DNA from: Candidatus Omnitrophota bacterium
Lineage (GTDB): Bacteria; Omnitrophota; Gorgyraeia; JAHJTE01
Length of the DNA stretch: 64,000 bases
Direction of reading: 5' to 3'
Assembly: GCA_018830005.1 (NCBI GenBank)
Contig: JAHJTE010000002.1
Coordinates: forward strand, 267,809 to 331,808
Below are positions 54,001 through 64,000 of this stretch, one piece after another. Position 1 is the first letter of the stretch; every line of letters starts with the position of its first letter. The position numbers are program-made.

Positions 54001-57000
54001 ATATCAGCCTTAGAATCAAAAATTTCATTCTTTTTATAAGGGATTACTCCCCAGTTTATATTCGCTCCTCTGTCTGCTGCCTTTTCTATCAAACTTATGA
54101 ACTCTCTTAAAGAGATACTTTGACCTGTGCCTATACTAAATTCTATAAATTTTTCTTTAAAATTTCTCATGTTTCCTAAAACTTTTAAATATGCTTTAAC
54201 TATATCTTTCACATAGATAAAATCTCTTTTTTGTTCACCACCTGTTGCATTGATTTCGCTACCATTTAAAATACTTTCAATCACAAAAGGGATGAATTTG
54301 GTATCGTCGTCTCTTTCACCATACATATATTCCAATACGATATTGATAAATTTAATCTCATAATTTGCGGAAAAAGACTTTGCTATCTCAAGGAATGATT
54401 TCTTGCTGGCAGAATATAGACTATATAAACTATTTATTGATGTGTCTGCGTTTATAAACGCCTTGACCTTATGCCTTGTGCCTAATTCTAATAATCTTGA
54501 AGGCAAGACGACATTCGCATTCATAATCTCGATAATGTTGTTATTATTCTTTTTTCCATAATCAGTTGCTAAATGGATAATTACATCAATGCTATTATCT
54601 TGAAAAACCCTTTCAAGATCAATTTTGTCAATTTCGTATTCTTTCAAACTCGAAAGAATATCTTTTATGCGCCAAGTGTCAGAAAAAGAGCGCTTGAGGA
54701 CAATGATATTATTTTCTTTTTCCAATAACTCGGGCAGAAGATGACTGCCCAAAAAACCTGTAGCTCCTGTAACTAAAATATTCATAAATAATTTTCTTGG
54801 CTTTTAGAAAAATTAAACAAACTGATTAATAACCAGCTTAACCCTTTCTATCGACTTGCCATCCATTTTATAGGCATGTTCGGGAATGTACTTCTCTCTA
54901 TTTATCCTAAGTGCAGATTCTATCTTAGAATCAAATAAAACATTGCGAATTTGATTTTCTAATTTTTCAAGATTATCAACAGCTATAACTGCATTATATT
55001 TTCTAAAATTCCAGACATCCTCAGAAAAAAAGCCAGAGCTGTAACACAATAATATGACATTTTTATTCAACAAAACTGCCTCATAGCTGGCTCCGGAAAA
55101 GTGAGTTATAAGCAAATCACAAATATTTAAAAGCTCTAGCATCTCTATATCATTCTTAATAATGGTGTAATTTTGCAAGCCTGACTCTTTAGCTAATCTC
55201 TCATAAAGCTTTGCATCTATATCAAAAGGATGCAATTTGACTATAAGATGCGCCTCTTTTATATTTTTCATGACACCACAAATAAGATTCATTTGTTCTA
55301 TCATTTCATACTTGAGCGTGCCCATAGTTAATGAGGCATAGGTCGTTGCAAAAACAACTATCTTCTTTGAATCAACCAGTTCTAAATTTAACTTACCTGG
55401 TTTTTGATAAAAGGTATCAAGCTTAGGAGCTCCAACAATCCAAATTTTATCTTTATTAACCGAGTTTGCGGATAAATACTCCTTCCAGAAATTGCCTTCA
55501 ACTGTAACTGCATCCGCCGTAACCGGACGAAAAAAGATAAATTCATCAGCATGGCCAGTCTGCATAGCCACAACCGGTATAGATAGACTTTCTGCAATTA
55601 GGGCAATATCAAAATGATAATCCGCCACAACAATAACTTTCGGCCTATAGAGCGAAACAATCTTTCTGATTGTTTCTATATCCCTTATTTTTTCCGGAAA
55701 TTCTACATAAACTAATCTTCTGAATTTATGCATCAATATTGGCCAGAGAGATATCCCCTTATAAATTAACCTATCACTTATATAATTTGAGGAGAAGAAT
55801 AGATCGTGGATTCTTTTCAAAAATTGGCGTATTTCTTGCCTAGGCAACAAGTTATATAGCTTATATCCATAAAAATTAGTATAAGATATTTTATTTTTCT
55901 TCAAAATTTTAGAAGAACTTGATTGAAATGTATCAATTACTAATCGGTCATTATCATTGTAATCAAAGACAACTGGCAACATTGACTTAAAAAATCTCTC
56001 AATGGGAGTAAAAAATATAATTTTATATTGTTTATTTAGCTTTAGAGACGTTTTAAAATTAACAAGGTAAAAATATAAACTTATTAATGTTTTCTTGCCT
56101 TTTTTTAAAAACAATAGGCTTTTATTAAAAGCGTTTCTTAACAATAAACTCCGCTTAGAAGTTTTTACATGTTTAAAAATAGTAATCTGCTTTTTCTGGC
56201 AAATTAAGCTAACTAACTTCTCAAGATTGCTTATTTTGCCAAGGATATGGACTTGTGATGGGTTTTCAAAGTCCAAGATTCCTTGCATTAAATTAATATC
56301 ATATATGATCGGTGTGAGCTCAAAGAAAATATACCTGGCGCTTAATTCCCAGAGTGACACTCCTTTATACATTGTTAAAGTTTTAAGCGATGTTTGATCT
56401 TCCATCCTTTCTTCAGACAGCGAACTGAAGAAATCATATACATCTTGTTTAATATTTAAAAAATTTATATTTATTTTTTTCTGATAATATTCTAGGCTTC
56501 TTGAAATATATTTCTTAGGTATAATTCCGTTATTAAATGCTGATAAAATAAAAATTCTCCTATTGCTAACACTCAAGCTGCTGTATAGCTTATAAGCTGC
56601 GCCTAGCTGGGATCTCTCATTAACAAAAATTATGCTTTTAAGTTTATTACTCATAATTTAGTATGATTTTCTCATTTTGAAATCAACTTCCTGACCAACG
56701 GCGTACCTTTAGCAATATCTTTTTTTGCTTTCCTGTTTAAGATTGTCTTAAAAAATTTTGGGGCAAGCCCAAAACCTGGTCTGATAGAACGAATATTCTC
56801 CTCGCTGAATCTTTCTCCCTTTTTTATATCTTTAACAGCAAACAAAGAACGCCTGATAATAAGACTATTCTTTTCTCCCTTTGTTAATCCATAATAAACC
56901 CTTCCTAGCGCCTTTTCGGCAACCCGTACATTATTTACTAATTCCTTCAACTCATTAGGCTCTATTGAAAAAAAGCTCTCTGGAGTTTTATTAATTCTGG

Positions 57001-63000: not shown

Positions 63001-64000
63001 CTAATTTTACCTTCTACCTCTCTAGGGGAAAATCTATAGGCATTTATATCCAACATCTCTACTTCATGGCCTGCATTTCTCAATACAGATGCAATATATC
63101 CCAAACCCAAAGGCAGAACGTTAGGCCTTGCCCACTCCCTGATAGGTGGATTTATTAAAAGTATTTTCATCTTTTTCCTGTGAAACTAAAAAACGTCTAA
63201 CATTATTGCTGCGAAACGTACGAAAGAAAAATTCAGATTGCTTATAAAATGGCTCATTAGAGAACTCGTTAATAAAATCATTATACTGACTCAAAGAATG
63301 AACCTTATATCGATATTTAACCGGCTTAGATAAAAGAAACTCAGAAAGCATCCCGCGATAATCCTGCTTACGCCAAGCTCCTAAATCATAAGGACTTAAC
63401 AGTTCAACGCTCTCCTGAGGCATCTCCCAAAATGGTATAATGATATTTCCTACTAAAATTTTTCCAAACTGCATTTCTTTCAAAAATTCAGATAGGTCAC
63501 CTCGTCCTTTTTTGCGAAATATAACAGTGGCTGCCTCTATAACCTCATCTAGCAATTTTTGCTGTTTTAAGGCATGAATCATATCACCCTTTATAATCTT
63601 TGATAGAATGAAATGATTCCTGAATCCAATATACTGACTAGAGTCACTTTTCTCTGAGAACTGTTGACTAAAAACCTTACGCACATCTTCCTTTTCTTCA
63701 AATAAATTATCCTGCAAGCAATCTTTAAGTCTCTCTACTTGTCCGGAAATAAATGGATATCTCCCTGGATTATCAAACAATTCTAAAATAACATCTGAAA
63801 TCTTAACTCCCCTATTCTCCCAGATATAAACCATCTCTTTAAAATAGCCCCAAAACATAAAGAGTTTATAGATAAGTGTCAATAAATTTATTTTTATGAA
63901 CTCTTGGAAGCTAAAGTCATTGCTTGCCACTGCCCAAGAATCTATTTCCACATTCTCAAACTGACCAAATTTTGTATAGCCACGTTCAGCAATGCTATAT

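Follow-up and report, generated by a model that had tools for sequence, protein, structure and literature searches.

A pseudaminic acid operon of Candidatus Omnitrophota and its conserved accessory genes

Which nonulosonic acid is made by an operon of a large surface-glycan region in a Candidatus Omnitrophota bacterium, and do the unusual genes that accompany it belong to the pathway? The region considered here (hereafter, the window) is a stretch of 64,000 nucleotides on contig JAHJTE010000002.1 of GenBank assembly GCA_018830005.1 (positions 267,809 to 331,808 of the forward strand). In an initial annotation of the window, core genes for a sialic, pseudaminic or legionaminic type of sugar were assigned between 56672 and 63170. 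PseB, PseC and PseH were reported to be missing, and an ATP-grasp enzyme, a metallophosphoesterase (MPE), a classical short-chain dehydrogenase/reductase (SDR) and a cobalamin-binding radical S-adenosylmethionine (radical-SAM) enzyme were reported in their place.

Nonulosonic acids decorate flagella, S-layers, capsules and lipopolysaccharide, and they govern motility, immune recognition and phage/host interactions. Little is known of the enzymes by which their N-acyl groups are varied (PMC5378307). In this work, we find that the sugar is of the pseudaminic acid (Pse) type and that the accessory enzymes, namely the radical-SAM, ATP-grasp and MPE proteins, probably alter it in ways that have not been described. 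Protein families were scored with Pfam and NCBIfam profiles; the cut-offs quoted for NCBIfam equivalogs are in bits.

Pseudaminic acid backbone genes and operon layout

All seven open reading frames (ORFs) assigned to the module are found where they had been placed, on the minus strand. The synthase gene (56672..57754, minus strand; probable true start at 57727, NCBI product of 351 aa) encodes NeuB and SAF domains (Pfam NeuB, E=1.6e-87). Its product scores 453.3 bits against the PseI equivalog TIGR03586, well above the cut-off of 340.25, whereas its score against the NeuB_NnaB model TIGR03569, 303.9 bits, is under the cut-off of 399.65. Since the PseI equivalog is passed and the NeuB equivalog is not, the sugar is assigned to the pseudaminic type, which narrows the nonulosonic-acid module of the initial annotation to one of its three candidates. 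The possibility, raised in the same annotation, that the synthase groups with KDO-8-P or DAHP synthases is ruled out, since those models give only 16 bits.

The PseG-type UDP-sugar hydrolase (60117..61064, minus strand, 315 aa) is recognized by TIGR03590, by a family profile and by a sequence motif. The TIGR03590 match (E=1.7e-32) reaches 113 bits, under the cut-off of 153. A PDB search with the single sequence gave no match; a profile built from the window PseG and 21 relatives from Pse loci matches the structure of Campylobacter jejuni PseG, 3hbm, over its full length (E=4.5e-55). The GxGHxxR motif is present near the N terminus (GFGHITR, residues 16-22), and we take its histidine to be catalytic. 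The PseF-like CMP-nonulosonate synthetase (61061..61843, minus strand; likely start at 61789 or 61807; CTP_transf_3, E=7e-24) has TIGR03584 as its best NCBIfam match (E=2e-35; 122 bits, under the cut-off of 205), and its nearest solved relatives are the CMP-Neu5Ac synthetases 6ifd and 1eyr. Going by these matches, it clearly belongs to the CMP-nonulosonate/KDO cytidylyltransferase family. The initial calls of a PseG-like hydrolase and a CMP-sugar synthetase hold.

The end of the window falls inside the operon. The exact window proteins are also encoded in the NCBI metagenome-assembled genome (MAG) GCA_043815545.1 and in one Logan assembly, and contig L002, which carries the same genes, each 100% identical at the protein level, extends 5.4 kb beyond the window end. 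The upstream genes on L002 are, in order, PseB (C-terminal part), PseC, a WbuX/PseA-type amidotransferase, a TIGR03587 methylase and a 693-aa KedN5-like cobalamin radical-SAM enzyme (rSAM-693). PseC passes its equivalog (TIGR03588, 518.7 bits; cut-off 423.5), and PseB, the gene of which is cut by the contig end, matches TIGR03589 with its C-terminal 130 aa (E=4e-49). The reported absence of PseB and PseC is an artefact of the window edge, and the accessory genes do not take the place of these two; only PseH is unaccounted for. The window holds the 3' two-thirds of a 13-gene co-directional operon, in which the genes are ordered as PseB, PseC, WbuX/PseA-like amidotransferase, Pse-methylase, rSAM-693, a 459-aa cobalamin radical-SAM enzyme (rSAM-459), PseF, PseG, SDR, MPE, ATP-grasp, PseI and a glycosyltransferase. 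Neighbouring genes of the Pse region lie on a single strand with intergenic gaps of -50 to +17 nt and are therefore regarded as one operon. In the NCBI contig JBDRIX010000004.1 (L001), the contig end breaks the PseG gene, and the public annotation thus splits the operon over contigs.

As for PseH, its reported absence stands for the sequences searched, which were the window and L002 and not the rest of the genome: there is no tblastn match to the PseH-like GNAT family of related loci in the 64-kb window, and no GNAT among the upstream genes scanned on L002. The sole acetyltransferase found in the window is a hexapeptide-repeat protein encoded 9 kb downstream (47861-48469), a possible stand-in for PseH; it adjoins a Gfo/Idh/MocA oxidoreductase, and the two (47861-49476) resemble a WbpD/WbpB pair.

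Profile and structure comparisons show that the backbone pathway is present, with PseB, PseC, PseG, PseI and a PseF-like enzyme. In this pathway, PseB and PseC would yield UDP-4-amino-4,6-dideoxy-L-AltNAc, PseG would strip the UDP, PseI would condense the sugar with phosphoenolpyruvate (PEP) and PseF would make the CMP-sugar. Compared with the canonical CMP-Pse pathway of C. jejuni and Helicobacter pylori, five of the six enzymes, counting the PseF-like protein, lie in one operon here, with PseC and PseI above their equivalog cut-offs and a PseG whose family profile finds the solved C. jejuni structure. In contrast to the canonical pathway, PseH is not found, PseF and PseG are divergent, scoring below their equivalog cut-offs, and there are extra genes, namely those for the amidotransferase, the methylase, two cobalamin radical-SAM enzymes, the SDR, and the MPE and ATP-grasp proteins.

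The amidotransferase and methylase genes, which lie side by side on L002 and outside the window, predict an (N-methyl)acetamidino group, a feature that the initial annotation had missed. The N-acetyl-sugar amidotransferase of WbuX/PseA type scores 312 bits against TIGR03573 (cut-off 203.2), and the Pse-associated methylase scores 177.3 bits against TIGR03587 (cut-off 112). In Campylobacter, acetamidino and N-methylacetamidino groups are found on Pse and legionaminic acid (Leg), made with PseA and with PtmG/PtmH, respectively (PMC13317340). The same combination of amidotransferase and methylase as in the routes to Pse5Ac7Am (PseA) and Leg5AmNMe7Ac (PtmG/PtmH) is present here, and the two enzymes would turn one N-acetyl group into an (N-methyl)acetamidino group in a similar way. 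Compared with the PseA and PtmG systems, the operon has no HisH/HisF-type glutaminase/cyclase partners.

Conservation of the accessory genes in pseudaminic acid loci

The domain calls for the accessory genes in the initial annotation are correct: the ATP-grasp, MPE, SDR and cobalamin radical-SAM proteins all hold in profile searches, and their catalytic motifs are intact. The ATP-grasp gene (57729..58685, minus strand) encodes a PylC-like N domain with ATP-grasp_3 and ATPgrasp_Ter matches in Pfam, and its product scores 226.5 bits against NF009402, the cut-off of which is 218. Its partner, the YfcE/ApaH-like MPE (58688..59380, minus strand; Pfam Metallophos_2, E=2.6e-25), has all four metal motifs, DVH, GD, GNHD and GHTH, at residues 8, 35, 62 and 153. 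The SDR (59390..60109, minus strand; adh_short, E=2e-33) is of the classical, benzil/sepiapterin-reductase-like kind; it scores 241 bits against NF005381, under the cut-off of 258, and retains the motifs TGVSKGLG (TGxxxGxG), NNAG and YCSAK (YxxxK).

To survey the ATP-grasp family, we used a family-alignment scan with one genome per species, which gave 80 loci, and then tblastn and ORF clustering. The homologues, which are 44-67% identical, come from many MAGs and from Clostridium botulinum, C. tetani and Aquibacillus. The MPE family is conserved to about the same degree (44-69% identity), with C. botulinum and C. sporogenes as its Clostridium members. In 61 of the 80 species loci the MPE gene ends no more than 150 nt upstream of the ATP-grasp gene, and pseI lies within 3.5 kb of the latter in 55 of the 80, the PseI proteins being 44-68% identical to that of the window. 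PseB, PseC and PseG are found upstream wherever the contig reaches. The hosts belong to Omnitrophota, Planctomycetota, Firmicutes, Thermodesulfobacteriota, Beta- and Gammaproteobacteria, Campylobacterales, Bacteroidota, bacteria of the candidate phyla radiation (CPR) and Micrarchaeota. The MPE/ATP-grasp pair is a conserved cassette in the Pse loci of more than 60 species from many phyla. Since both this pair and rSAM-459 (see below) are conserved in Pse-gene loci of dozens of genomes, the accessory genes belong to the module, as the initial annotation had assumed, and are not chance neighbours. The idea that the MPE replaces PseG was also considered and is ruled out, since PseG is co-conserved with the MPE.

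The window has the SDR-type architecture, PseG-SDR-MPE-ATPgrasp-PseI, which elsewhere occurs mostly in Firmicutes; an SDR of the window type precedes the pair in 14 other loci, again mostly from that phylum. The methyltransferase-type architecture is PseG-(extended SDR)-methyltransferase-MPE-ATPgrasp-PseI-GNAT. Among the 28 loci with long flanks, a GNAT is present in 12 of the 15 loci of the methyltransferase type, compared with one of the five of the SDR type. Two loci encode an ATP-grasp protein fused to a C-terminal GNAT domain in a single ORF (L029:9977-11569 and L020:8820-10529), and these fusions are a Rosetta-stone link between both activities. In view of the co-occurrence with GNATs and the fusions, the cassette is not a simple substitute for PseH in all lineages. 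An LmbE-type deacetylase (cluster c22) adjoins the cassette in L014, L019, L020, L022, L050 and L081. A distant ATP-grasp subfamily, 27-33% identical, is found directly after a DegT/PseC-like aminotransferase in L054, L070, L078, L080 and L082 (ATP-grasp gene at about 10001), with neither an MPE nor a PseI gene.

The cassette also occurs in flagellin glycosylation islands. For example, the island of Jeotgalibacillus sp. (L021) consists of flagellin, Maf, PseB, PseC, a cytidylyltransferase, PseG, MPE, ATP-grasp, PseI, two small ORFs and FliD, so that MPE and ATP-grasp are the sole non-canonical genes, and it has no PseH. In C. botulinum, the cassette lies in such an island between two Maf genes and pseI; the ATP-grasp protein is 47% identical to that of the window, and the island contains the MPE gene, a methyltransferase and PseI. 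Cultured carriers of the cassette include Jeotgalibacillus sp. R-1-5s-1, Soehngenia longivitae 1933P, Oceanirhabdus sp. W0125-5, Aquibacillus albus DSM 23711 and strains of C. botulinum and C. sporogenes. In Clostridium, genes named "carbamoyl-phosphate synthase large subunit" ("CarB") are listed in an orthogroup table for 23 flagellar islands, without comment (PMC13317340), and a paper on the flagellin glycosylation island of Geobacillus does not mention MPE, ATP-grasp or radical-SAM genes. Our literature search found no function assigned to the MPE/ATP-grasp pair or to rSAM-459 in Pse loci. The sole ATP-grasp protein that it found named together with a nonulosonate is SfmE of Shewanella, which has a different domain (ATP-grasp_4).

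A second conserved element is rSAM-459 (61791..63170, minus strand), which has PF02310 (62.7 bits) and PF04055 (86.6 bits) domains and the sequence CPYKCIYC at residue 214. It reaches no NCBIfam equivalog, the best being HpnJ with 194 bits against a cut-off of 577. A metagenome scan with this protein gave 80 loci, the orthologues being 52-74% identical, and one or more genes of the Pse pathway are present in 74 of these loci. The neighbour on the upstream side is PseC in 24 of 53 cases, the Pse-methylase in 13 and a PseH-like GNAT in 7. Downstream, two arrangements account for all 63 cases: a PseF-like cytidylyltransferase comes next in 40, and in 23 a Gfo-type oxidoreductase precedes an SpsF-like cytidylyltransferase. 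Orthologues with 66-78% identity are found across Omnitrophota, Planctomycetota, Nitrospirota, Cloacimonadota and Altiarchaeales. Judged by its gene neighbourhoods, the rSAM-459 family is dedicated to Pse operons. No paper linking a radical-SAM enzyme to pseudaminic acid or to a modified nonulosonate was found in the literature search.

Compact PseB-PseC-rSAM-PseF-PseG-PseI operons occur among the rSAM-459 loci. For these, we considered that rSAM-459 might replace PseH. The idea is rejected, since a GNAT is frequent in such loci, as a separate gene or as a domain joined to PseG, and we regard rSAM-459 as an added step and not as a replacement. PseG-GNAT fusions of 488 aa each are encoded in the rSAM-459 operons L119 (5254-6720), L128 (10088-11554), L130, L132 and L134; PseH can therefore hide as a domain of PseG, which is not so in the window, where PseG has 315 aa. 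An alternative architecture (L088, L098, L102, L114, L125 and others) begins with rSAM-459, a Gfo/Idh/MocA oxidoreductase and the SpsF-like cytidylyltransferase, and continues with a 683-aa protein or a glutamate-1-semialdehyde-aminomutase-like aminotransferase and then a xylose-isomerase-like TIM barrel, often in the place of PseG.

The other cobalamin radical-SAM enzyme of the operon, rSAM-693, is represented in the window by its C-terminal part of about 293 aa (63121..64000, minus strand; ORF 63121-63951), which is cut by the window end. The full gene on L002 (3398-5479) encodes B12-binding and Radical_SAM domains with the motif CPFKCSFC, and its product matches the KedN5 subfamily NF033712 (E=4.5e-58) with 197 bits, under the cut-off of 700. 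Four further paralogues of this type are encoded in the window (21872-23293, 29942-31435, 36541-38001 and 45715-47118); all have a CxxxCxxC motif, and their identity with one another and with rSAM-459 is 29-35%. A shorter radical-SAM protein of 343 aa (32780-33811), with one CxxxCxxC motif, is possibly of the SPASM type, as judged by eye. Such a density of radical-SAM genes is unusual for a polysaccharide locus.

Predicted chemistry and rival explanations

The ATP-grasp protein is a probable ATP-dependent carboxylate-amine ligase, on the basis of its domains and of an AlphaFold2 model (pLDDT 93). The nearest Foldseek match of the model is 2pn1, an uncharacterised structural-genomics protein, and this entry without function is also the only one found when the PDB was searched with sequences of the family. 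The next matches are PylC and L-amino-acid ligases, followed by biotin carboxylase, PurK and carbamoyl-phosphate synthetase (CPS) domains (Foldseek probability 1.0 for PylC, the L-amino-acid ligases and PurK). The nearest characterised folds, PylC and the L-amino-acid ligases BL00235 and RizA (TM-score 0.65-0.71), are ATP-dependent enzymes that join the carboxylate of an amino acid to an amine, and the window protein is only 14-18% identical to them. Their resemblance to the predicted fold fits the N-acylating role that the initial annotation had proposed. The model of the MPE (pLDDT 96) is nearest to 3rqz, 1nnw and 2gju, which are uncharacterised, then to SapH, an Ap4A hydrolase/phosphodiesterase, YfcE and ApaH; 3rqz, 1nnw and 2gju, structural-genomics entries without function, were also the only results of a PDB sequence search.

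In the literature, one correlative precedent is C. botulinum F strain Langeland, the flagellin of which carries Leg5GluNMe7Ac (PMC2674064, PMC13317340). The Leg locus of this strain encodes an N-acetylglucosamine deacetylase and an ATP-grasp protein named "CarB", neither with an orthologue in the C. butyricum strain used for comparison, and also a PtmH-like methyltransferase (PMC13317340 Table S3). In both this locus (LegB, C, F, I and G) and the window, an ATP-grasp gene lies beside the synthase gene in a nonulosonate operon, and in the Langeland product a sugar nitrogen is amino-acylated; in contrast to the window operon, the locus is of the Leg type and no phosphoesterase is listed for it. 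Another comparison is with Pse5Am7Gra of Tannerella forsythia, in which, as in the product predicted here, one nitrogen bears an amidino group and the other an acyl group different from acetyl. Unlike the window operon, T. forsythia has PseH and is without a pseA homologue. Its Leg/Pse transferases, BFO_1060 and Tanf_01245 (PMC5420450), have a possible counterpart in the GT-B/TagB-like glycosyltransferase of 613 aa that the window encodes directly downstream of pseI (54813..56654, minus strand; Pfam Glyphos_transf, E=2e-8, and Capsule_synth). This protein matches the BFO_1060-family model NF046086 weakly (E=1e-18; 67.6 bits, under the cut-off of 200), and we infer that it is a candidate pseudaminic-acid transferase, a role with which the place of its gene right behind pseI agrees.

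With modest confidence, we favour the reading that the operon makes and transfers a tailored CMP-pseudaminic acid that carries an (N-methyl)acetamidino group, an N-acyl group installed by the ATP-grasp enzyme and a radical-SAM modification. The ATP-grasp enzyme would spend ATP to couple an amine of the sugar with a carboxylic acid, such as an amino acid, a small acid or a hydroxy acid. Its likeliest target would be the amine that PseC places on C4 (N7 in the finished Pse); this is the most economical target because the window operon has neither PseH nor a deacetylase. The MPE and the SDR would act on the acyl group so attached, or on an intermediate that bears a nucleotide or a phosphate. A specific version, in which the MPE dephosphorylates a phosphorylated acid (phosphoglycerate or PEP) before or after ligation and the SDR then reduces it, is unsupported speculation. 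The two cobalamin radical-SAM enzymes would modify the sugar or its N-acyl groups by C-methylation or other radical chemistry, and the downstream TagB-like glycosyltransferase would move the CMP-activated product onto a surface glycan for which the remaining genes of the 64-kb cluster code. The C-methylation and N-aminoacylation of a nonulosonate predicted in the initial annotation are plausible.

The known class B radical-SAM enzymes that act on sugars or cytidylylated substrates include GenK, GenD1 and Fom3, and HpnJ carries out a ring contraction. Like them, rSAM-459 has an N-terminal B12-binding domain and a CxxxCxxC radical-SAM core; its gene lies inside an amino-sugar pathway, nearly always near a cytidylyltransferase, which is a further point of likeness. 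By analogy, it could either methylate a carbon, like the class B enzymes that modify sugars, or catalyse a rearrangement, like HpnJ. The cytidylyltransferase gene that is always close by invites the speculation that its substrate is CMP-linked. More tentatively, rSAM-459 may catalyse a dedicated and so far unrecognised step of the Pse pathway, that is, C-methylation or rearrangement of the skeleton or of a nucleotide-linked precursor, and the cassette an ATP-dependent N-acylation independent of coenzyme A, the two together giving a new class of carbon-modified, unusually N-acylated nonulosonates.

Several findings weigh against the tailored product that we favour. PseG and PseF score under their equivalog cut-offs, and PseH activity could be provided by the hexapeptide acetyltransferase (47861-48469) or by a gene elsewhere in the genome. 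A PseH-like GNAT is also encoded in 33 of the 80 cassette loci, and two genomes fuse ATP-grasp to GNAT; the ATP-grasp enzyme may act on another position or on the aminoacyl group. Its fold is equally near to the bicarbonate-activating enzymes PurK and biotin carboxylase. For the MPE, the nearest characterised fold is an Ap4A hydrolase/phosphodiesterase. The best profiles of rSAM-459, HpnJ and BchE, are not methyltransferases, and its scores are far under their cut-offs. Finally, the Langeland protein CLI_2774 is likened to the window ATP-grasp enzyme by annotation and context.

The GNAT data bear directly on a rival reading, somewhat unlikely in our judgement, in which PseH is not bypassed: a PseH encoded elsewhere gives Pse5Ac7Ac, and the ATP-grasp, MPE and SDR enzymes act late, on Pse or CMP-Pse. 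They might re-acylate N5 after deacetylation, as inferred for Leg5GluNMe7Ac, or attach an amino-acid ester to a hydroxyl, as in Pse5Am7Ac8GlnAc of C. jejuni. Many cassette loci retain a PseH-like GNAT, some with an adjoining LmbE-type deacetylase, the ATP-grasp-GNAT fusions show that both activities coexist, and a deacetylase accompanies CarB in the Leg locus of Langeland. Moreover, the acetamidino modification of Campylobacter occurs at the CMP-sugar stage (PMC5378307). However, there is neither a deacetylase nor a GNAT in the window operon, and the operons of Jeotgalibacillus and Soehngenia are compact and lack both. A simpler alternative, which we consider improbable, is that the pathway is an ordinary one to Pse5Ac7Ac and that the ATP-grasp, MPE and SDR enzymes contribute to a different sugar of the cluster or provide a precursor, leaving the nonulosonate unchanged. 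Although the 64-kb cluster encodes many other sugar-modifying enzymes, more than 50 unrelated genomes keep the cassette near pseI, pseG, pseB and pseC, including those with minimal flagellin glycosylation islands that have no other sugar pathway.

Two further readings concern individual enzymes. The ATP-grasp protein might activate bicarbonate, in the manner of PurK, biotin carboxylase or CPS, and N-carboxylate or carbamoylate the sugar amine; the Foldseek E-values for these three are about equal to that for PylC, and the NCBIfam family is named "carbamoyl phosphate synthase-like". Given that the top characterised folds are PylC and an L-amino-acid ligase and that a PylC-like N domain is present, we hold this to be very improbable; in addition, we know of no N-carboxy or N-carbamoyl nonulosonate. 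Least credible of all is a synthase that makes legionaminic or neuraminic acid instead of pseudaminic acid. The CMP-Neu5Ac synthetases nearest to the PseF-like enzyme and a LegB/LegC-like gene pair at 18508-20746 would agree with it, but the synthase passes the PseI equivalog (453 against 340 bits) and fails the NeuB model (304 against 400), the Pse-specific PseB, PseC and PseG are in the same operon, and the operon has no LegG/NeuC-type 2-epimerase.

Surrounding glycan cluster and implications

The window as a whole, with a G+C content of about 34% and nearly all long ORFs on the minus strand, is one very large surface-glycan cluster. It encodes many glycosyltransferases, Wzx-type flippases, an O-antigen-ligase-like protein, a WecA-like initiating transferase and several nucleotide-sugar dehydratases/epimerases. 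The pair at 18508-20746, a LegC-like aminotransferase (TIGR04181, 349 bits; cut-off 420) and a LegB-like 4,6-dehydratase (258 bits; cut-off 475), lies 36 kb from the Pse operon and represents a second 4-amino-4,6-dideoxy-sugar branch in the cluster. In a 610-aa protein (9799-11631), a phosphoglycosyl transferase of the WecA/MraY type (residues 16-328) is joined to a segment (374-602) that matches the N-terminal half of a sugar transferase profile of the EPS/WbaP type. Two adjoining DUF4330 proteins of 180 and 453 aa (15329-17335) are next to an ORF of 184 aa without a family match (14778-15332). A NodU-like carbamoyltransferase and an asparagine-synthase-type glutamine amidotransferase (5596-7413 and 34630-36528) suggest carbamoylated and amidated sugars.

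By comparative genomics, two conserved accessory modules, the cassette and rSAM-459, are now tied to Pse biosynthesis. The cassette extends to the Pse loci of cultured Firmicutes and to the flagellin islands of Clostridium, where it has been annotated only as "CarB". Should the product of the accessory genes prove to be a derivative that is already known (formyl, hydroxybutyryl or glyceroyl Pse, for example), what is gained would be the missing biosynthetic genes and not new chemistry. If these genes instead make the new class of carbon-modified, N-acylated nonulosonates proposed above, this class would occur widely at the cell surface in phyla that are anaerobic and mostly uncultured (Omnitrophota, Planctomycetota, Nitrospirota, Cloacimonadota and Altiarchaeales), and the carriers of the cassette would also include the flagella of Clostridium and other Firmicutes. 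The cassette and rSAM-459 are testable candidates for new sugar chemistry and possible genomic markers of modified pseudaminic acids.

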